The notes: generated from the sequence alone by a model not told the origin. A stretch of 16,782 nucleotides of DNA from Terrimicrobiaceae bacterium (GCA_044342325.1 JBIIPZ010000052.1:1-16782); one strand, 5' to 3'; numbered from the stretch's first letter, positions 180 through 10,298 are shown. A program made the numbers and translations.

Positions 180-1205
180 CTACCAGCCCACGATGAGTTT
201 ATCCTTCGCTGAGATGGTCCATTTTTCCAGCATCTCGATACCTTGCAGCGCGATTTTTGCTTCCACGCGCGAGGGATCGCCTGCCTTGTGGTGTGCAAGG
301 ATATCCATGAACAATCTGTCGAAATAGAGGTTTGTTTCGATTGTTCCGTGATGGAAGTTTTCATCGACGACAGGACATTTGATTGCGCCTGATTTTGCTG
401 AGAATCCGCGCAATGTCCCTATGTCGCCTTCTTCAGGAGAAAGGACGAGTTCGAGGAATCCCTGATCGCCGTCTGCTCTCAGAATCGTGGAAAGAGATGG
501 CGTGTGCTCGCCGGATTCCACAACCAATCTGGCTCCGTCATCGAAATGAACAGTCCCCAACAGTTGTTTTTCAATGGCGACTCCTTGGTATTTTTCGGAG
601 TCGGACCATTGGATCGCGGCGAACGCTCTCACCGGAGTGCGTGGCGCGAGCCATCCTGCGGCGGTATCCAGAAGGTGGGGGCCGAAATTGATGAATCCCG
701 TGCCGGGGTGAACGACGTGAACGGAGCTGAGTCTACCGATCATTCCGGAATGGATCGCGTCGTAGGCCGCTGCAAAAGGAGCTCCATAGCGACGCTGAAA
801 GTTCACAAAAATGCGGGCTCCGGCAGATTCGGCAGCATCAAGCATTCTGTGGGCGGATGCCGCATTGAGCGCGAAGGGTTTCTCCGCAAGGATGATGTTG
901 GCGCCTACCGCGATGGCCGCCATCACCATTTCCTCACGCTCAGGCGGAAAGGCGCAGACACTCACGAAATCAGGAGCCTCGGCGGTGAGCATTTCCCCGT
1001 AGTCGGAATACATCGTGGTTCCCGGAAACTCGCTGGCAAAAGCTTCGGCATTCCTCGGAGTGCGTGTGGCGGCGGCGGCAAGATGCACGAGACCACCGCT
1101 GCGTTTCATGCTCAGGGCATGGGCATAGGCTATAGAGTGGCGTCCAGCCCGGCCTTGACCGCCGGTTCCGCATCCAATGATGACGGCGCGCATCGGGGAA
1201 CTCAT
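180..1205 (-). CDS. Gfo/Idh/MocA family NAD(P)-dependent oxidoreductase
   Basis: N-terminal Rossmann IIGCG, AEKP motif, NFQRRY, GPHLLD; ATGA overlap with upstream gene. Confidence 0.9.
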   Translation of the reverse strand: MSSPMRAVIIGCGTGGQGRAGRHSIAYAHALSMKRSGGLVHLAAAATRTPRNAEAFASEFPGTTMYSDYGEMLTAEAPDFVSVCAFPPEREEMVMAAIAVGANIILAEKPFALNAASAHRMLDAAESAGARIFVNFQRRYGAPFAAAYDAIHSGMIGRLSSVHVVHPGTGFINFGPHLLDTAAGWLAPRTPVRAFAAIQWSDSEKYQGVAIEKQLLGTVHFDDGARLVVESGEHTPSLSTILRADGDQGFLELVLSPEEGDIGTLRGFSAKSGAIKCPVVDENFHHGTIETNLYFDRLFMDILAHHKAGDPSRVEAKIALQGIEMLEKWTISAKDKLIVGW

Positions 1206-2296
1206 TTCGTTGCTCCTTTCCAGTCAAGCACGGCCGAGAACAAGCGTCGCTCCTTGAGGCCTGCATAGGCGTCCGGCGCATCCGTGTAGGGAAGCACGGC
1301 ATCTAGAAAATCGGAGGACTTGAAACGCCCCGCCCGGATATGCTCGATCACGCGCTGGCGTTCCTCCATTCCCCGATCGCGCGGGGTGATGATGATGGAT
1401 CCCTCTCCTGGGGCCGTGTGGTCTGGATTCCAGGAAACGGGTTCGAGGTAGTTTGCTTGAAAGATCAGCCGGGGCCAGTCGCCTCCGTAGAAATGAATCG
1501 GCTCGACGGTGTAGTCGGCGGAATAGTTCTGCGGCTTGCGGCGAAGCAGGGAACGCGCAAGTTCGACTCCGGGCGAGGAACCCGATGCCTCGACGACGAT
1601 GTCCGCGCCACCATTGGTGAAAACTCCGAGACGCTCTTTGAGATTCTTGTCGGCGGCGGAGACGGCGAGGGCGGCTCCATTCCTGAGGGCACGCTCAAGG
1701 CGGGATTCCTCCATGTCCACCACGGCCACCCGGCACCCTGACAGTAAAAGCCATTTTGCCGAAAGCGATCCGATGAGGCCCTGCCCGATGACGATCGCGG
1801 TCTCGCCTGGTTTGGGCATGGCCGCTTCGACGCCGCGCAGGGGAATGGCGGCAAGCTCCGTGAAAATGTAATCCAGCGGGTCTGCGCCGGCTGGCAGCAA
1901 TGCGGGACGGTCGGTATCATTCGTAGAGGCCACCTGCTCTGCGCTGTGCGCTCCGTAAAGTGTCCTCATATTCGCAAGTGGACGGGTGTTTCTTGCGCTC
2001 ACCAGATCGCCGACACGCCAACCTTTCGCCTCGCTGCCGACCTCGATGATTTCTCCGACCGAGGTGTAGCCCGGCACATAGGGAAACTTTTCCGCCGCGC
2101 CATAGTGCCCAGCGAGCATGCGGAGTTCCGTTCCCGGCGAGATGATCGAGTAATGGGTGCGGATGACAACCTCTGTGGGACCGCACTCATTCCGCTGCAC
2201 GGTGGCGAGGGTCACTTTGTTCGGTTCGCTAAAAACGACGGCTGGGATTGGTGTGTTCACGGCATCCTGTTTAGGCGGCTCATTGGCAGGCTTCAA
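1202..2296 (-). CDS. MDR superfamily dehydrogenase (BchC-like subgroup lacking canonical Zn ligands)
   Basis: GroES-like domain with ISPGTE and PGYTSVG, nucleotide-binding GQGLIG, DIVVEASG. TTG start uncertain (GTG near 2260 possible). Confidence 0.85.
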   Translation of the reverse strand: MKPANEPPKQDAVNTPIPAVVFSEPNKVTLATVQRNECGPTEVVIRTHYSIISPGTELRMLAGHYGAAEKFPYVPGYTSVGEIIEVGSEAKGWRVGDLVSARNTRPLANMRTLYGAHSAEQVASTNDTDRPALLPAGADPLDYIFTELAAIPLRGVEAAMPKPGETAIVIGQGLIGSLSAKWLLLSGCRVAVVDMEESRLERALRNGAALAVSAADKNLKERLGVFTNGGADIVVEASGSSPGVELARSLLRRKPQNYSADYTVEPIHFYGGDWPRLIFQANYLEPVSWNPDHTAPGEGSIIITPRDRGMEERQRVIEHIRAGRFKSSDFLDAVLPYTDAPDAYAGLKERRLFSAVLDWKGATK

Positions 2297-6217: not shown

Positions 6218-6973
6218 CTAACTTCGGCTTTGATGGATAGCCACGCTTTTTTGGATAGCCAGTGTGGCTTCTGTCGGCAGAAGGTCGACTATGCAGTCGT
6301 TGATGTGATCCCATGCTGAAAACAACACGGTGCTGGGCGCCTGCCATTTGCTTTGGTCGGCAAGAATGATTCGGCGCTTGGCGCGGGCGATGATGTTTTT
6401 TTTGATCTCGCTTTCGGTCAACTCTGTGGTCCAACAGCCTTCGGAATTCAGTCCTGTGGCACCGATCAATGCGAAGTCGAATTGAAGATTGGCGAAGGCG
6501 TTCAGGGCCGGTCCTCCGACGAGGGCTCCGCTGACTTTGCGCAATTCTCCTCCGATGCAGATAATGCTGGCTTCCGCGTGGGAGCATGCAGCGACCAGAG
6601 TGACGGAGTGGGTGATCAAGCGGATGTCCGCGCGGTGCATGAGGATTTTACCGGCTTCCAGACAGGTCGACCCAGCATCAACAAAAACGCTGGAGCCAGC
6701 AGGGATAAGTTCATTCGCCTTGGTGGCGATAGATTTCTTTTCTGTGTTGTGGCGCTGCTGGCGCTCATCGAATGAAATTTCTGCGCGGGCATATAGGGGA
6801 TCAAGCACGCCTCCATGCACTCGGATCAGATCGCCCGCCCGCTCGAGTTCGCTCAAATCCCTTCGCAGTGTGGCTGGTGAGACGCGAAACAGATTTTGGA
6901 GTTCCGCAAAGCTGAGGCGCTGCTTTTCCCTCACAATTTTTCGAATCGAGTTATGTCTTTCTTGAGCGAACAT
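6218..6973 (-). CDS. DeoR/GlpR family transcriptional regulator
   Basis: VSPATLRRDLSELE HTH, RVHGG, VFVDAGST, IGGELR, ILADQSK. Confidence 0.95.
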   Translation of the reverse strand: MFAQERHNSIRKIVREKQRLSFAELQNLFRVSPATLRRDLSELERAGDLIRVHGGVLDPLYARAEISFDERQQRHNTEKKSIATKANELIPAGSSVFVDAGSTCLEAGKILMHRADIRLITHSVTLVAACSHAEASIICIGGELRKVSGALVGGPALNAFANLQFDFALIGATGLNSEGCWTTELTESEIKKNIIARAKRRIILADQSKWQAPSTVLFSAWDHINDCIVDLLPTEATLAIQKSVAIHQSRS

Positions 6974-7022
6974 TGTTGTTTGTTATTATTTTGATCGTTA
7001 AGATAGTCTCTTTTTCAATTTC

Positions 7023-8402
7023 ATGACTGCAAAATTCAAGTCTTTGGCAGCAGCTCAGTTTCCTCATATAGCACGCCTTGAGGAGAAAGAAGACCTTATT
7101 CCCTATTCGTTTGATGGCACGGCGACATTTCAGACCATGCCAGATCTCGTGCTTTTTCCGACCAGCACGGAGGAGGTGGCTGGACTGGTGAAGATGGCGG
7201 GGGATTGCAGAGTGCCAGTGGTCACGCGCGGTTCGGGCACGGGATTGAGCGGTGGAAGTATTCCTGTGGAGGGAAGCGTGGTTCTGTGCCTCTCGAAAAT
7301 GAACCGTATTCTGGAGGTAGATGAAAAAAACCTCACTCTGCTCGCTGAGGCAGGCGCCATAACGCTCGACGTGGCTACGGTTGCCGAAAAAGCCGGGCTG
7401 TTCTATCCCCCGGACCCGGGCTCGATGAAGATTTCTACGATCGGCGGTAATGTCGCGGAAAACTCCGGCGGACTGCGCGGGCTGAAGTATGGCGTGACGA
7501 AGGATTATGTGATGGGCCTGGAAGTCGTGCTGGCCTCGGGAGAGGTTGTTTTCACAGGCAACAAATGCGTGAAGGATGTTGCCGGATACTCGCTCCGGGA
7601 CCTCTTTATCGGCTCCGAGGGCACTCTCGGCATTGTCACCAAGGTCCTGCTCAAACTTATTCCAAAACCCGCCGCTAGGCGCACGCTCATGGCTGTCTTT
7701 GCAACGATGGAGAGCGCTGCTGAGACGGTGTCGGCCATCATTGCCGCAAAGATCATTCCTTGCACTCTGGAGTTCCTCGATGCGGTGACGATCAATTGCG
7801 TGGAAGATTTTGCCAAGGTTGGCCTTCCCCGCGATGCGGCGGCGATTTTGTTGATTGAGACAGATGGTCACCCTGCCGCAGTCGCCGAGGAGGCGGACCG
7901 CATGGCCGAACTCGCCCGCCAGCATGGGGCGACCTCTGTGCAAGTCGCCGAAACAGCTGAACAAGCTGCAGCCTTGGCCACAGCACGCCGCGCCGCATTT
8001 TCCTCGCTCGCCCGCGTCGCGCCGACGACCATCCTCGAGGATGCCACGGTTCCCCGTAGCGAGTTGGCGAAAATGATCCGCTTCATTCAAGAGACCGGTC
8101 AGCGTCACAATCTCAAAATAGGAACCTTCGGCCACATGGGCGACGGCAACCTGCACCCGACTTTCCTCACCAACGAGCGCAACCTAGAGGAAATGCACCG
8201 CGTCGAACTCGCGATGAAAGAGATCTTCGATTTCGCCGTCTCCCTCGGAGGCACCATCACCGGCGAACACGGAGTCGGCCTTGCTAAAAAAGAATTCCTC
8301 AAAGCCGCCACAAGCGACCTGAACCTCGAGATCATGCGCCGCATGAAAACCGCTTTCGATCCGGCAGGAATACTCAATCCGGGGAAAATCTTCAACGCTT
8401 GA
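7023..8402 (+). CDS. glcD: Glycolate oxidase subunit GlcD-like FAD-linked oxidase
   Basis: RGSGTGLSGG, YPPDPGS, STIGGNVAENSGG, GSEGTLG, GHMGDGNLHP, ITGEHGVG, DPAGILNPGK; glcF downstream. Confidence 0.9.
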   Translation: MTAKFKSLAAAQFPHIARLEEKEDLIPYSFDGTATFQTMPDLVLFPTSTEEVAGLVKMAGDCRVPVVTRGSGTGLSGGSIPVEGSVVLCLSKMNRILEVDEKNLTLLAEAGAITLDVATVAEKAGLFYPPDPGSMKISTIGGNVAENSGGLRGLKYGVTKDYVMGLEVVLASGEVVFTGNKCVKDVAGYSLRDLFIGSEGTLGIVTKVLLKLIPKPAARRTLMAVFATMESAAETVSAIIAAKIIPCTLEFLDAVTINCVEDFAKVGLPRDAAAILLIETDGHPAAVAEEADRMAELARQHGATSVQVAETAEQAAALATARRAAFSSLARVAPTTILEDATVPRSELAKMIRFIQETGQRHNLKIGTFGHMGDGNLHPTFLTNERNLEEMHRVELAMKEIFDFAVSLGGTITGEHGVGLAKKEFLKAATSDLNLEIMRRMKTAFDPAGILNPGKIFNA

Positions 8403-8409
8403 GGCGTTG

Positions 8410-8449
8410 GAAATCCAACATCCAACATCGAACTCCCAAATCGAAATGA
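8410..8449 (+). repeat. Heptamer tandem array A (CATCCAA-type)
   Basis: GA AATCCAA CATCCAA CATCGAA CTCCCAA ATCGAA ATGA. Confidence 0.85.
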
Positions 8450-8465
8450 CCAACTTTCTTGCTTG

Positions 8466-8879
8466 ATGAATACGGCAAATCAATCGGCGTCTCAGAGTGG
8501 TAGGAAATTTGATCTGGAGGAGAGACTGTTGGAGTTTTCTGCACGGATTGTTCGGCTCTCTGCAAAAATGAAAACTGGCGAGGCGGAGCGCCATGTTGGA
8601 CATCAACTGTTGCGCGCCGGAACGTCTCCTTATGCGAACCATGGTGAGGCCGAGGATGCCGAGTCTGCGAATGATTTTATTCATAAAATGAAGATCTGCG
8701 TGAAGGAAATGCGCGAGACATGGAGATGGCTGCGTTTGATTCAACGAGTTCCCCTTGTCGCCAAGCCAGAACGACTGGAACCTTTGATTGATGAAGCCGA
8801 TCAACTGATTCGTATCTTCCGTCAAAGCATCCTTACCGCCCGCAAAAACGCTCAGCGAACATCCAACGCCCAACATTAA
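8466..8879 (+). CDS. Four-helix-bundle protein (TIGR02436 / 23S rRNA-IVS protein / Avd-like fold)
   Basis: FDLEERLLEFSARIV, QLLRAGTSPYANHGEA, ESANDFIHKMKICVKEMRETWRWLRLI, EADQLIRIF: the characteristic family pattern. Visibly more AT-rich than glcD. Confidence 0.92.
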   Translation: MNTANQSASQSGRKFDLEERLLEFSARIVRLSAKMKTGEAERHVGHQLLRAGTSPYANHGEAEDAESANDFIHKMKICVKEMRETWRWLRLIQRVPLVAKPERLEPLIDEADQLIRIFRQSILTARKNAQRTSNAQH

Positions 8880-8886
8880 CACTCCA
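8857..8886 (+). repeat. Heptamer tandem array B (direct copy; spans the four-helix gene stop and reaches the glcF start)
   Basis: GAA CATCCAA CGCCCAA CATTAA CACTCCA. Confidence 0.7.
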
Positions 8887-10298
8887 TGAGTCTCGCAAAA
8901 GAATCAGAGGTCCATACAACTCAAAATCCCCGCCCCACTTCATTGGATGTTGGAAGTTCTATGTTGAATGTTGGATGTTCAGACACGCCCTCACACCCAA
9001 CCCACGCAGGCCTCAAAGACCTCGACTACTCCATTCTCCAGCAGTGCATGCATTGCGGCATGTGTCTGCCGACCTGTCCGACCTACGATGCCACAAAAAT
9101 GGAGCGCAACAGCCCGAGGGGACGCATTTCGCTCATGCGGGCGATTGCCGATGGTAAAATGGATGCGACTCGCACCTTCGGCGAGGAAATGTATTTCTGC
9201 CTCGGCTGCCTGGCCTGTGAAACCGCTTGTCCAGCCGGAGTGGAGTATGGACATCTCTTTGAAGTCGCTCGCTCGGAGGTCGAAAAATCGGGCGCGCTAA
9301 ATAATCCGCGCCGCAATGCGATTCGCAGTGTTCTTTTGAAAGGGCTTTTCACTCGCCCACGCCTCTTGCGCTTGGTTGGCAGGGGACTCTGGTTCTATCA
9401 GGCCAGCGGGGCACAGTGGATTTTTCGCACGCTGAAGCTCAATGCGCTCCTACCACAAAAATTTCGGAATTTGGAAACGCAGACTCCGACAGCACGAGCC
9501 ACTTTTTCGTGCGACATCATTCGCCCAGTTGAAACGCCTGCAGCGCCTCGTCACCGTGTTGGAATGCTCACCGGTTGCGTGCAGGACATCGTCCTCTCAG
9601 ATGTGAACCGCGATACGGTGGATGTCCTTCTGTCCAATGGCTGCGAGGTCCACACGCCGAAGGTGCAGGTTTGTTGCGGCTCGCTCCATGCCCACAATGG
9701 CGAACTGGAAACGGCCAGTGACCTTGCGCGCCGATTGATCGATTCTTTCGATCTGGAAAATCTCGACGCCATCATCACGAATGCTGCCGGTTGCGGTTCC
9801 CATCTTAAAACCTATGGACGCCTCCTCGAAAGCGATGCCGCCTATTCCAAAAAAGCCGCGCAATGGTCAGCGAAGCTCAAGGATATTCACGAATTCCTCT
9901 CAGAGATCGGAATTCGCCAACCCCAGACAACGGCCACGTCTCACCGCGTCACCTACCACGAGGCCTGTCACCTGTGCCATGGGCAGAAAATCACCAAGCA
10001 ACCGCGCGAGGTTTTAAAATCGATTCCGGGACTCGAACTCGTGGAACTCCCGGAATCCACCTGGTGCTGCGGGAGTGCGGGAATCTACAACATCACGCAA
10101 CCCGAAATGGCCGCCGACCTTCAGGACCGGAAACTCAAAAATATTCTCTCAACCGGCGTCGATACCGTCGCGACAGCCAACCCCGGTTGTCACCTCCAAC
10201 TCGTGGATGGCGCCCGACGTGCCGGTCGCTCTCTTGAAGTCGCCCATCCGATCTCCCTGCTTGCCAGGGCTTATAGGGCGGAGAAGGTAGTCAGATGA
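8886..10298 (+). CDS. glcF: Glycolate oxidase iron-sulfur subunit GlcF-like
   Basis: Two 4Fe-4S motifs (CMHCGMCLPTCP, CLGCLACETACP), SPRGRI, two CCG domains (VCCGS, WCCGSAGIYN). Start uncertain (ATG 8886 or in-frame ATG 8961). Confidence 0.9.
   Translation: MSLAKESEVHTTQNPRPTSLDVGSSMLNVGCSDTPSHPTHAGLKDLDYSILQQCMHCGMCLPTCPTYDATKMERNSPRGRISLMRAIADGKMDATRTFGEEMYFCLGCLACETACPAGVEYGHLFEVARSEVEKSGALNNPRRNAIRSVLLKGLFTRPRLLRLVGRGLWFYQASGAQWIFRTLKLNALLPQKFRNLETQTPTARATFSCDIIRPVETPAAPRHRVGMLTGCVQDIVLSDVNRDTVDVLLSNGCEVHTPKVQVCCGSLHAHNGELETASDLARRLIDSFDLENLDAIITNAAGCGSHLKTYGRLLESDAAYSKKAAQWSAKLKDIHEFLSEIGIRQPQTTATSHRVTYHEACHLCHGQKITKQPREVLKSIPGLELVELPESTWCCGSAGIYNITQPEMAADLQDRKLKNILSTGVDTVATANPGCHLQLVDGARRAGRSLEVAHPISLLARAYRAEKVVR
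8940..8980 (-). repeat. Heptamer tandem array C (inverted relative to A and B), inside glcF 5' end
   Basis: Plus strand TCA TTGGATG TTGGAAG TTCTATG TTGAATG TTGGATG TTC. Confidence 0.88.

Follow-up and report, generated by a model that had tools for sequence, protein, structure and literature searches.

The segment from 8403 to 8985 of the window (the whole 16,782-nt stretch of Terrimicrobiaceae DNA that was analyzed) is very probably a compact cassette inserted at a glcD–glcF operon junction, and a member of a family-wide TIGR02436/PF05635 architecture in which a four-helix-bundle (4HB) protein gene is accompanied by arrays of short tandem units. That this design is the one found in ORF-bearing 23S rRNA intervening sequences (IVS) and in cyanobacterial STRR hairpins is well supported. 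The best explanation overall, to which we give a probability of roughly 0.55, is an IVS/STRR-type cassette riding in its host operon by the mechanism proposed below, for which we infer RNase III processing, binding of the arrays by the protein, and the means of spread.

Layout of the Locus

The features of the locus are listed in table 1. In profile searches, the product of the central ORF scored 76 bits against TIGR02436 (cut-off 24) and 43.8 bits against PF05635 (cut-off 33.8). Its upstream neighbor is GlcD-like, the TIGR00387 score being under the equivalog cut-off of 567.9, and its downstream neighbor is GlcF-like (NF008434, 274.7 bits, under the cut-off of 333), with homology from residue 49. 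All three genes are co-oriented. The in-frame starts usable for glcF are ATG 8886, which follows the end of array B by 6 nt, and then ATG 8961 and TTG 8964. The order of direct array A, ORF, direct array B, a 63-nt loop, and inverted array C is a minority layout within the TIGR02436/PF05635 architecture.

Table 1. Features of the glcD–glcF Junction and Its Cassette (Positions Counted from the First Letter of the Window)
Feature	Position	Strand	Basis
glcD-like FAD-linked oxidase gene, upstream host gene	7023–8402	+	ORF; TIGR00387, 519.5 bits; stop TGA at 8400–8402
Inserted cassette, boundaries approximate	8403–8985	+	Comparison with empty glcD–glcF junctions of relatives; lower GC
Array A, about five G-poor heptamer units (ATCCAAC-type); 5' arm and 4HB leader; direct repeat 1	8408–8449	+	
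4HB protein gene, 137 aa, pI 9.7, TIGR02436/PF05635	8466–8879	+	Profile scores; PDB 2RLD match
Array B, direct copy of A (direct repeat 2), over the last 4HB codons and stop	8857–8879	+	
Open frame continuous with glcF; N-terminal extension without GlcF homology, read through array C	8886–9029	+	
Array C, five heptamer units, reverse complement of A and B; 3' arm	8943–8981	-	Pairs with A in folds
glcF-like iron-sulfur subunit gene, GlcF-homologous part	9030–10298	+	NF008434 residues 49–460

A reading made earlier from the sequence alone (the sequence-only reading) had described the 4HB gene as AT-richer than its surroundings. Its GC content is indeed 49.5% (48% over 8403–8985) against 57% in each neighbor, and its GC3 is 49% against 62–65%. 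The cassette is placed between two protein-coding genes and not in a 23S rRNA helix, and a search of Rfam over 8300–9100 with E-values up to 1 gave no match. No terminator-like site was found by a scan of the + strand of the cassette. The only promoter-like + strand site inside it is a 9-of-12 match at 8876–8904; three such sites occur in a 3.5-kb stretch, compared with 1.5 expected from shuffles.

Heptamer Arrays and Predicted Folds

Paired inverted arrays around the gene had also been claimed, and both A and C were confirmed from the sequence, with ends 2–3 nt away from those first given. Their reported unit-for-unit alignment keeps its register over about 40 nt, given one compensating indel. 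The inventory of arrays was incomplete in that the direct array B had been missed. Array B matches A as a 16-nt direct repeat (88%) and is complementary to C over 20 nt (85%) at a distance of 84 nt. A repeat search placed the A/C arms at 8408–8439 and 8950–8981 (32 nt, 84% complementary, 510 nt apart); the repeats found in 8300–9100 are the heptamer arrays plus short chance pairs. When both strands of the 2.93-Mb genome were searched for (CATCCAA)x5 with up to 9 mismatches, only A, C, and a third site at C47:11196–11244 were returned. The ungapped arm score of the locus is 19.5, compared with a 99th percentile of 12.9 among 412 non-cognate upstream/downstream pairings, one of which reaches 16. 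Lag-7 periodicity was flagged as well (15 of 21 matches). Single CATCCAA words are unremarkable alone, with 7 in the window against 3.4 expected and 7 reached in 8 of 200 shuffles.

The idea that the cassette folds out of the transcript on a long stem fared less evenly. A and C are predicted to pair in both the MFE and the centroid folds, but the G:U signature of a sense-RNA helix is absent. The stability predicted for the whole 600-nt fold is not unusual (z = -1.32), and RNAduplex gives the A:C duplex -34.5 kcal/mol as sense RNA versus -40.7 kcal/mol as antisense.

Arrays and Arms across the Family

We pooled 108 TIGR02436 loci, 29 from this genome and 40 relatives and 79 from other species. 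The latter were drawn from the best 80 of 589 confirmed stretches and are biased towards 'SNIAEG'-type proteins because a narrower alignment was used to gather them; since loci are interrelated and were chosen as best matches, the counts below overstate their independence. In this genome and its relatives, a lag-7 array was present within 250 nt at 27 of the 29 loci, compared with 0–2 loci for other lags between 4 and 13 and with 5 of 29 in distant flanks. Among the other-species loci (best 80 of 589), lag-7 arrays were detected at 49 of 79 and lag-8 arrays at 17 of 79, the remaining lags, the multiple 14 aside, occurring at 0–4 loci. Pooled, 7- or 8-nt arrays flank 92 of 108 loci (79 of the 108 being from the best 80 of 589), and the loci with arrays span at least 11 phyla in this best-match sample. 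Arrays were also found at 14 of 17 further loci (L145, L149, and L151 were left out of 20), at 28 of 32 loci on viral contigs, and at all eight 4HB genes fetched from cyanobacterial plasmids. The flanking arrays which the sequence-only reading had expected at other TIGR02436 genes are thus present in the genome, its relatives, other phyla, viral contigs, and cyanobacterial plasmids. Stop or start codons in all three frames were considered as a cause of the 7-nt period and dropped, neither being present in many arrays.

On the basis of an ungapped complementarity score, inverted arms (score of at least 14) were identified at 72 of 103 loci versus 4 of 412 non-cognate control pairings, with a median arm length of 32 nt. 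Arrays consist of 4 or 5 units in 98 of 140 cases, where the lower bound of 4 is a product of the detection window, and of at least 6 units in only 16. Each cassette has a heptamer sequence of its own, and this holds even for cassettes that share a genome. In orthologs of a metK–4HB–ahcY locus, the two arms have co-changed (TTTTAAG to TTTTCAG and CTTAAAA to CTGAAAA, four paired positions), and arrays differ at 0–1 positions between orthologs although dS is 0.36–0.54; arrays are conserved above synonymous sites.

These observations bear on the alternative that the arrays have no function, being debris of slippage or a chance resemblance. Replication slippage can make short tandem repeats, and copy number is described as varying among Coxiella strains (PMC4990558). 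However, different phyla share a fixed period of 7 or 8, with other periods from 4 to 13 rare or absent, array size has a sharp cut-off after 5 units, complementary arms far exceed the control pairings, and paired positions co-change in arrays that are better conserved than synonymous sites. The counts of period, unit number, arms, and conservation therefore already refute this alternative, whose chance of being right is minute.

With regard to genomic context, the upstream neighbor is on the same strand at 74 of 98 loci and the downstream neighbor at 79 of 101, and at 41 of 51 loci the 3' array ends at -10 to +16 nt relative to the following ATG. When 20 other cassette loci were searched against Rfam with gathering scores as the threshold, the only matches were two tRNAs that flank L080, and no rRNA flanks were found. 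Two cyanobacterial plasmids have a 4HB gene situated between cas6 and cas4; on plasmids or viral contigs, 4HB cassettes are located inside cas and par operons as well.

Mismatches within the arms, read on the sense strand, comprise 83 A:C and 42 G:U; A:C mismatches predominate at 32 loci and G:U at 11. With RNAduplex run on the arms alone, the antisense duplex is more stable at 43 loci and the sense duplex at 21. A:C-rich mismatches together with a stabler antisense duplex provide no signature of a sense-RNA helix. The pattern agrees with a hairpin at the DNA level or on the bottom strand, or with leaders selected to be poor in G. That the arms pair in vivo on some strand is probable.

The Four-Helix-Bundle Protein

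Eight orthologous pairs with measurable dS have dN/dS values of 0.05–0.19 (0.10 for the window protein and its ortholog in genome G033), and a ninth measurable pair, L001/L012, which represents different loci, has 0.33. These ratios place the 4HB protein under purifying selection. The median pI of the 4HB proteins is 9.2. In an alignment of 20 proteins, a Q..R...S...N motif was observed in which Q47 is invariant and R50, S54, and N58 are each present in at least 90%; the family motif has been given as GxxRxxxSxxxNxxE (PMC3936711). By sequence match, the closest solved relative is PDB 2RLD (E = 2.3e-14, residues 17–127), whose entry contains five chains, and the homolog of X. campestris is described as a homopentamer (PMC4990558). 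PADLOC gave no match for four cassette proteins, and a literature search found no paper in which HEPN is linked with TIGR02436/PF05635.

Avd and PF05635 proteins are treated as homologs in PMC10053308, and a relative encoded at L008 has a weak bAvd match (PF22296, 20.8 bits, under the cut-off of 40). Both are in line with the possibility that the locus is a remnant or accessory of a DGR, the protein acting as an Avd together with a reverse transcriptase and the arrays as template or target repeats. We consider this very improbable. The genome gives a single RVT_1 match, located on contig C3, whereas the window is on C33; this match is apparently of group II intron type with no arrays nearby. 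No template/variable repeat pair was found, the 7-nt tandem arrays lack adenine-specific differences, and the PADLOC result is negative.

Insertion at the glcD–glcF Junction and Other Sites

From 121 genomes of the order, 30 glcF loci were collected, of which the 24 with glcD directly upstream were counted and the other 6 excluded. A 4HB gene was present at only two of the 24 junctions, those of this window and G033. The 22 junctions without the gene correspond to the empty sites that the sequence-only reading had proposed to seek in relatives; 20 of these are 11–98 nt long and have no 7-nt array. The L141 junction is 131 nt long and carries inverted heptamer-like arms with no ORF. Because the gene is missing from most orthologous junctions of the order, which mostly measure 11–98 nt, the whole segment of about 580 bp is an insertion between glcD and glcF, and the earlier notion of a self-contained cassette is supported by the cassette-free orthologous junctions. 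In G033, the glcF frame likewise traverses the 3' arm, and the stop codon of the 4HB gene overlaps with a TTG start. At the cassette boundaries of the glcD–glcF site, there is no evident target-site duplication.

The same protein subfamily with CATCCAA/CATCGAA-type arrays was detected in three gene contexts: at glcD–glcF (G000, which is this genome, and G033), after a MaoC-like gene (G014 and G015), and between aldehyde dehydrogenase and EutN genes (G034). This distribution fits spread without a transposase of the cassette's own, as had been suggested. This genome has one full cassette of the window type plus the solo array on C47. A second full cassette (L001) encodes a protein with 17% identity to that of the window and has different heptamers; we saw no genome with two or more full cassettes that were nearly identical.

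Arrays without an ORF are also found. At the metK–ahcY junction of this genome, the ORF is gone; what is left comprises the inverted array, a loop in which the ORF's 3' tail survives, and the direct array. Two direct copies of a stretch of about 75 nt bracket the ORF at L012, and this genome has the single-copy state. Of 41 genomes of the genus, 35 contain a 30-nt array of the AACTTAA type, with 1–24 ORF-less copies each (12 in this genome). Such arrays average 7.9 in the ten genomes that encode a protein with at least 68% identity to that of L012, and 3.6 in the 24 genomes where a search with the L012 protein found none of at least 56% identity, a difference that is weak and confounded by relatedness and from which we draw no support. 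The persistence of arrays where the cognate gene was not found counts against the explanation we prefer.

Parts of 8000–9400 were recovered from three freshwater metatranscriptome runs at 90–99% identity as short assembled contigs, with a depth of about 2–6 over the cassette that rises to about 19 in part of glcD; the coverage, gaps, and ends of such assembled contigs are uninformative on transcript ends or levels. One freshwater RNA-library contig joins 8434 (in A) to 8869 (in B) at a shared CCCAA and in heptamer phase, a junction that rests on this single contig and is used cautiously here.

Many of these data could be accommodated if the arms acted at the DNA level, as terminal inverted repeats (TIRs) or a bottom-strand ssDNA hairpin of a non-autonomous mobile cassette, with the RNA helix being a tolerated or eroded by-product. 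Movement would then depend on a host or phage recombinase, transposase, or reverse transcriptase in trans, or on recombination at resident arrays via a circle of ORF plus array. The patchy occupancy of the glcD–glcF junction, the presence of one cassette type in three gene contexts and of cassettes in viral contigs, the excess of A:C over G:U mismatches with the stabler antisense strand, the contig joining A to B, and the ORF-less 30-nt arrays dispersed through the genus are in favor of this alternative, and the L012 duplicates with the single-copy state in this genome are the pattern expected of circle integration or excision. On the other hand, it has to be reconciled with the lack of an evident target-site duplication, with full copies in this genome that are far from identical in protein and heptamers, and with a cassette that travels without a recombinase. 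The only reverse transcriptase match in this genome is distant. Furthermore, arms and arrays have been conserved long after insertion, and a one-time insertion signal needs no such upkeep. We regard action at the DNA level as unlikely.

One array type precedes several unrelated genes in this genome (e.g., at C38:13258, C38:16832, C44:38480, C63:25776, and C57:30847). This observation would suit a host-beneficial regulatory module instead of a selfish element, in which the hairpins are intercistronic stability or translational-coupling elements and the 4HB protein is a general RNA-binding factor encoded in some of them. The position of arrays next to start codons, their conservation above synonymous sites, and the purifying selection on the protein argue in the same direction, as does the stabilizing or coupling role proposed for the 7-bp STRR hairpins of the hupS–hupL spacer (PMC2670836). 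However, the glcD–glcF junction is without the cassette in 22 of 24 relatives examined, the composition of the cassette looks foreign, its occurrence in viral contigs, plasmids, and cas and par operons looks like hitch-hiking, and the heptamers are cassette-specific with no shared regulon motif. We consider a regulatory module quite unlikely.

Proposed Mechanism

In the explanation we prefer, a cassette of the IVS/STRR type, transcription of the host operon would cover the insert, which has no recognizable promoter or terminator. The G-poor arrays before start codons may serve as unstructured leaders, A for the 4HB gene and B for ATG 8886, and translation of glcF would be coupled, starting from ATG 8886, 6 nt past the 4HB stop, and proceeding through array C. 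Array C could pair with either direct array, and A:C pairing would form a helix of about 32–40 bp, similar to the long helix of the Coxiella IVS that RNase III cuts. Expression or processing of the insert and the downstream gene might then be set by the state of the arms, open or paired. By analogy, RNase III may cut this mRNA stem, which we think possible and somewhat less than an even bet. An A:C or B:C cut would sever glcF from its sole in-frame starts; therefore, processing would be harmful unless translation holds the helix open.

The 4HB protein, kept by selection, would most likely bind single-stranded arrays as a pentamer, with one subunit per unit. Such binding is predicted because arrays have 4–5 units and the crystallized relative has five chains, and the prediction is a tentative one, less likely right than wrong. 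The heptamers vary by cassette and the conserved residues of the protein do not; thus, there is no obvious basis for sequence-specific reading. In-phase recombination between the direct arrays would result in loss of the ORF, leaving an ORF-less heptamer hairpin behind.

A more general hypothesis, bold and rather unlikely, is that TIGR02436/PF05635 proteins are the partners of heptamer hairpins, and that a pentameric Avd-like ring reads 4–5 units of 7 nt (8 nt in some lineages), one per subunit. Gene and arrays would then form a self-maintaining, REPIN-RAYT-like system that colonizes transcribed spacers in many phyla and phages, and rRNA IVS, STRRs, and the Avd of DGRs would be offshoots of one ancient class of elements. 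If true, the colonized spacers would include operon junctions, tRNA clusters, cas and par operons, and rRNA helices.

Implications

ORF-bearing rRNA IVS and cyanobacterial 7-bp STRR hairpins are two long-known oddities without an agreed function or origin, and 'four helix bundle protein' is a very common annotation with no known role. Our counts indicate that the rRNA IVS, STRRs, and 4HB genes represent one cross-phylum design, which is also present in phage contigs and plasmids. They also provide a candidate protein partner for heptamer repeats, with 4–5 units, a 7/8-nt ruler, and a five-chain crystal relative. In literature searches, no paper was found on a general association of 4HB genes with heptamer arrays, the Coxiella IVS being the only local case. 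The operon-riding design would explain why 4HB genes turn up in unrelated operons. In a published survey, 18 such genes were reported in cas loci, one of them between cmr3 and cmr2; the guilt-by-association of 4HB genes with cas loci may reflect hitch-hiking and not a functional link.

Comparison with Known Systems

Integron cassettes and MITE-like elements consist of a small promoterless ORF or a non-autonomous element with imperfect inverted repeats. The cassette described here shares with them a small, promoterless, co-oriented ORF, imperfect inverted repeats, and ORF-less derivatives. It has the TIRs of a MITE or TIR element, and neither the near-identical copies nor the target-site duplication of such elements was seen. 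In addition, its arms consist of tandem 7-nt units, there is no integrase or attI platform, and the inverted repeats bracket the ORF instead of both being at its 3' end.

REPIN-RAYT systems comprise dispersed palindromic repeat doublets and a single-copy gene flanked by the same repeats. The present system is similar in that a single-copy gene is placed between inverted copies of a short repeat, ORF-less doublets are dispersed in the same genomes, and several gene/repeat families occur per genome. It differs in its protein, a helical bundle of 120–140 aa without a recognizable nuclease or transposase fold, and in its repeats, which are tandem heptamer arrays instead of single palindromes and persist where the cognate gene was not found.

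The Avd protein of DGRs is described as homologous to this small, basic four-helix-bundle family (PMC10053308), and solved relatives are pentameric. Unlike a DGR, the locus has no adjacent reverse transcriptase and no template/variable repeat pair.

The analogy with an IVS drawn by the sequence-only reading is strengthened by the helix-45 23S IVS of Coxiella burnetii, a 428-nt element with an S23p ORF, as described in PMC4990558. According to that description, 2–3 tandem heptamers and a degenerate one are located ahead of the ORF, and RNase III cuts the stem at the first repeat (in vitro, RACE-mapped). The two elements have in common a PF05635 ORF inside complementary termini with a stem of about 28–32 bp, tandem heptamers in the 5' arm just ahead of the ORF, a similar size (about 580 nt here), and the absence of a mobility gene. 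The authors argued that the Coxiella ORF is unexpressed, probably untranslated, and decaying (PMC4990558), in contrast to the signature of purifying selection here. Excision was demonstrated for Coxiella (PMC4990558), whereas a cut here would sever glcF from its start. The host RNA also differs, being a 23S rRNA helix there and the glcD–glcF mRNA junction here, and the direct array B is an extra feature of the present locus.

The STRR sequences of filamentous cyanobacteria are said to have been the subject of Vioque's work in 1997. To our knowledge, their description links no protein gene to them and treats them as peculiar to cyanobacteria. STRR hairpins of 7-bp units between hupS and hupL have been proposed to raise transcript stability or to provide translational coupling (PMC2670836). 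In the present case, a TIGR02436 gene lies inside the arrays, the host is probably a verrucomicrobium and not a filamentous cyanobacterium, and the design extends to at least 11 phyla. The resemblance lies in the tandem 7-bp units and the hairpin-forming inverted arrays between co-transcribed or co-oriented genes. ORF-less hairpins of the same design are present at the metK–ahcY junction of this genome and at L141, and every one of the 4HB genes fetched from cyanobacteria (8/8) is itself flanked by such arrays.

Gene Context and Heptamer Arrays in the Window

The window is contig C33 of its genome (G000; 2.93 Mb in 78 contigs, 86% complete), in which a gene for a four-helix-bundle (4HB) protein lies between glcD-like and glcF-like genes and is accompanied by three arrays of tandem 7-nt units (heptamers). 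The regulator gene divergent from glcD, together with the neighboring promoter-like site, is likely the control region of this cassette-bearing operon.

Positions of the features discussed (contig numbers refer to G000 unless another genome is named)
Feature	Location	Strand	Remarks
DeoR/GlpR-family regulator gene	window 6218-6973	minus	divergent from glcD
Promoter-like site	window 6962-6989	plus	just upstream of glcD
GlcD-like ORF	window 7023-8402		ORF call and family profiles
Array A	window 8408-8449		5' of the 4HB ORF
4HB ORF (TIGR02436/PF05635)	window 8466-8879		ORF call and family profiles
Array B	window 8857-8879		very end of the 4HB ORF; direct copy of A
Promoter-like site, 9-of-12 match	window 8876-8904	plus	inside the cassette
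GlcF-like ORF	window 8886-10298		GlcF homology from residue 49 onwards only
Array C	window 8943-8981		reverse complement of A
Solo CATCCAA-type array	C47:11196-11244		5-6 units
Reverse transcriptase gene	C3:72542-73762	minus	406 aa
AACTTAA-type array copies	C16:24211, C38:13258, C38:16832, C44:25429, C44:38480, C57:30847/30970, C63:25776, C63:26690, others
CTCCGTGCTCTCCGTGTCCTCTGTGGTTA-like repeat sites	C44:~38400, C63:~25700, C28:~5480, C44:~25500, C38:~16800		either strand
Composite repeat region (L165)	G144:C2:650600-654000		>12 tandem repeats
Cassette between tRNA genes (L080)	1066-1827		Omnitrophota MAG

The sequence-only reading had described arrays A and C as inverted copies in the same register, which was borne out: A matches the reverse complement of C over 32 nt ungapped at 84%, or over ~40 nt if one compensating indel is allowed. 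That reading overlooked array B, which is complementary to C as well as a direct repeat of A. It had also called the gene AT-richer, in agreement with a GC content of 48% for the cassette versus 57% in the neighbors and a GC3 of 49% versus 62-65%. A whole-genome scan with a five-unit CATCCAA pattern (at most nine mismatches) found only A, C, and one site on contig C47, and the arm score of the window locus was 19.5, the 99th percentile of 412 mismatched controls being 12.9. Chance is therefore ruled out for the window arrays, and the finding is real.

The C47 array has neither an inverted partner nor a 4HB gene, and lies ~55 nt upstream of the ATG that opens a long ORF of repeat-rich sequence.

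Insertion at the glcD-glcF Junction

As the sequence-only reading had proposed, we compared the glcD-glcF loci of relatives. A set of 121 genomes of the order was searched with GlcF and 30 loci were fetched, 24 of which have glcD directly upstream of glcF and make up the junction count (the other 6 were excluded). Empty sites were found, 20 of the 24 junctions being 11-98 nt long and devoid of 7-nt arrays. A 4HB gene was present at only two junctions, those of the window and of G033, a genome from a different family whose 4HB protein is 65% identical to that of the window and whose related heptamers occupy the same site. The cassette is an insertion at the glcD-glcF junction. The site is empty in closer relatives by GlcF (80% and 72% identity), whereas the more distant G033 (68%) is occupied, which implies either many cassette losses or more than one entry at this site.

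The 131-nt junction of L141 (G100:C41) contains inverted heptamer-like arms (CTCAACG-type and GTTGAGCG-type) and no ORF; these arms resemble those of the G033 cassette, and the junction may preserve what is left of an insertion there that has lost its ORF. L121 (G045:C68) also has an insertion at this junction, but one of another kind and unrelated to the cassette: its 291 nt lack a 4HB gene and have a long perfect palindrome (GTTAACAAATTTG ... CAAATTTGTTAAC) at the borders.

Heptamer Arrays across the 4HB Family

Arrays were defined by periodicity at thresholds that we set (at least 15 of 21 matches at a given lag), 7-nt arrays were sought within 250 nt, and lag 14, a multiple of 7, was excluded from the other periods. 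The 4HB loci sampled were best-scoring matches, many of them mutually related. Arrays of 7-nt period were detected beside 27 of 29 TIGR02436 loci of G000 and 40 relatives, compared with 5/29 distant flanks, so that the association which the sequence-only reading had suggested checking was confirmed; lags 4-13 otherwise gave 0-2/29. In 79 loci of other species, from Verrucomicrobiota, Planctomycetota, Bacteroidota, Acidobacteriota, Gemmatimonadota, Ignavibacteriota, Chloroflexota, Omnitrophota, SAR324, Pseudomonadota, and Firmicutes, 49 had 7-nt and 17 had 8-nt arrays (other lags, 0-4), and pooling gave 76 of 108 loci with 7-nt arrays and 92/108 with 7- or 8-nt arrays. Arrays of either period were also present in 28 of 32 IMG/VR viral-contig loci, and all 8 cyanobacterial plasmid loci had 7-nt arrays. 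Upstream and downstream flanks were complementary (score at least 14) at 72/103 loci versus 4/412 non-cognate pairings, and arrays or arms were found at 95/103. This array architecture is family-wide among 4HB loci.

The second full 4HB gene of G000 (L001) has GTGGCGA-/GTAACGA-type arrays and an inverted copy, unlike those of the window in sequence. Six genomes supplied a further 17 loci that could be interpreted; arrays were present at 14 of these, and no two cassettes of one genome shared a heptamer. On plasmids of Anabaena sp. 90 (L204) and Pseudanabaena (L205), cas6 and cas4 are separated by a 4HB gene with long heptamer arrays, and on a Geminocystis plasmid (L206) such a gene separates an AAA-family ATPase gene from parB. 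The L080 cassette, which has heptamer arms, is placed within a non-coding RNA operon, with a tRNA gene on either side.

Most arrays (98/140) are 4-5 units long, and larger ones of at least 6 units number just 16; the lower bound of this distribution is fixed by the detection window, whereas the upper cut-off is real. The median arm length is 32 nt, and in most cassettes a G/U-rich arm precedes the ORF and a C/A-rich arm follows it. With only 9% G, the downstream array is G-poor; it abuts the next start codon, its end falling between -10 and +16 nt relative to the ATG at 41 of 51 loci. The cassettes are co-oriented with their neighbors, which by a crude longest-frame test are on the same strand upstream at 74/98 and downstream at 79/101 loci. 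Direct copies flank the ORF on both sides at 12 of 103 loci and, more weakly, in the window.

Conservation of the Arms and the Protein

A metK-4HB-ahcY cassette of the genus, whose gene identities were verified by family searches, has arrays with 0-1 differences per ~32-40 positions between species at a 4HB dS of 0.36-0.54, and the adjoining loop has diverged freely. When TTTTAAG-type orthologues are compared with those of the TTTTCAG type, four paired positions prove to be altered jointly in both arms. The dN/dS of 4HB orthologues is 0.05-0.19 in the eight pairs with measurable dS (0.10 for the window and G033); the 0.33 of L001/L012 compares different loci. Both the arms and the 4HB protein are conserved by selection. 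The protein is basic (median pI 9.2; window 9.7). Among solved structures, the five-chain entry 2RLD is closest to the protein of the window (E 2.3e-14), and PMC4990558 describes the X. campestris homologue as homopentameric.

ORF-less Forms and Dispersed Arrays

ORF-less forms of the cassette exist. The metK-ahcY junction of G000 consists of an inverted array, a loop, and a direct array that immediately precedes the start codon (ATG) of ahcY; the 4HB ORF is absent, and the loop still contains its last ~40 nt. In L012, the 4HB ORF is flanked by two ~75-nt direct duplicates comprising the ORF tail and array. A freshwater RNA-library contig (206 nt, depth 2.9, 90-95% identical) joins window position 8434 to 8869 at a CCCAA shared by A and B, with the heptamer phase kept and exactly the ORF gone; this join, seen in one contig only, may come either from a related strain whose DNA has the deletion or from template switching, as an artefact. 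Separately, a partial duplicate of the 4HB ORF 3' end lies past the inverted arm downstream of the 4HB gene in L160 (G015:C74), which suggests tandem duplication or inter-cassette recombination.

A 30-nt AACTTAA-type array occurs in 12 nearly identical copies in G000, most of those inspected preceding the start codon (ATG) of unrelated genes by 4-12 nt and some having an inverted copy 55-90 nt upstream. It was detected in 35 of 41 genus genomes (1-24 copies; reversed control pattern, 0-1), including genomes in which the cognate 4HB gene was not found.

Several other repeats were observed. A second dispersed repeat of G000, CTCCGTGCTCTCCGTGTCCTCTGTGGTTA-like, adjoins several heptamer arrays. 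The tandem units of L165 (~133-215 nt each) each combine an AACTTAA/CTGAAAA array with a GC-rich stretch that is conserved and with additional short repeats rich in AT; the region has no convincing ORFs. The only reverse transcriptase gene found in G000 looks like the group II intron type by its sequence features, and no heptamer arrays were present within 3 kb of it.

Possible Mechanism

The cassette would be co-transcribed with its host operon; the 9-of-12 match is the only promoter-like site on its plus strand, and scanning the plus strand for terminator-like sites found none. Translation of glcF might be coupled, starting at ATG 8886 and passing through array C. The glcF frame of G033 likewise crosses the arm, and there the 4HB stop is overlapped by a TTG start. 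Array C could pair with A or with B, the pairing with A being present in both predicted MFE and centroid folds. By analogy with 23S rRNA intervening sequences (IVSs), the arm helix might undergo RNase III-type processing, and the arrays may be bound by a 4HB pentamer.

Three points speak against RNA processing. A cut in the helix would take away the only start codons of glcF. On the sense strand, A:C base mismatches in the arms outnumber G:U (83 vs. 42), and the antisense duplex is more stable in 43 loci, the reverse being true in 21. The start-codon loss, the A:C excess, and the stabler antisense duplex fit a hairpin acting at the DNA level or on the bottom strand; they fit equally an erosion of the sense helix through selection for leaders poor in G. 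Two points speak against specific array binding by the 4HB protein: the heptamers vary while conserved residues do not, and arrays are present where the cognate gene was not found. The strongest hints of a protein ruler are the fixed 7-nt (or 8-nt) period and the array-size cut-off of 5 units.

Relation to Known Systems

In the literature library that we searched, no paper stated a general link between the 4HB family and heptamer arrays, and none described operon-borne cassettes of this kind beyond cyanobacteria and rRNA. PMC3936711 lists 18 PF05635 genes within cas loci, one between cmr3 and cmr2; cassettes such as those between cas6 and cas4 may explain the reported 4HB-CRISPR-Cas "associations" as hitch-hiking.

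The helix-45 IVS of Coxiella is described as an S23p ORF within a 28-bp terminal stem, with two or three tandem heptamers and a degenerate one before the start codon, RNase III cutting at the first repeat, and a strain-variable repeat number (Warrier et al. 2016, PMC4990558). The short tandemly repeated repetitive sequences (STRRs) of cyanobacteria, usually 7 bp and hairpin-capable, lie between hupS and hupL in several species; PMC2670836 gives their function as not known and mentions suggestions of transcript stability and translational coupling, and the title of a cited work places STRRs inside RNase P RNA genes. The window cassette is one case of a broad, apparently undescribed regularity that unites the "four helix bundle protein" family with rRNA IVSs and with hairpins of the STRR type.
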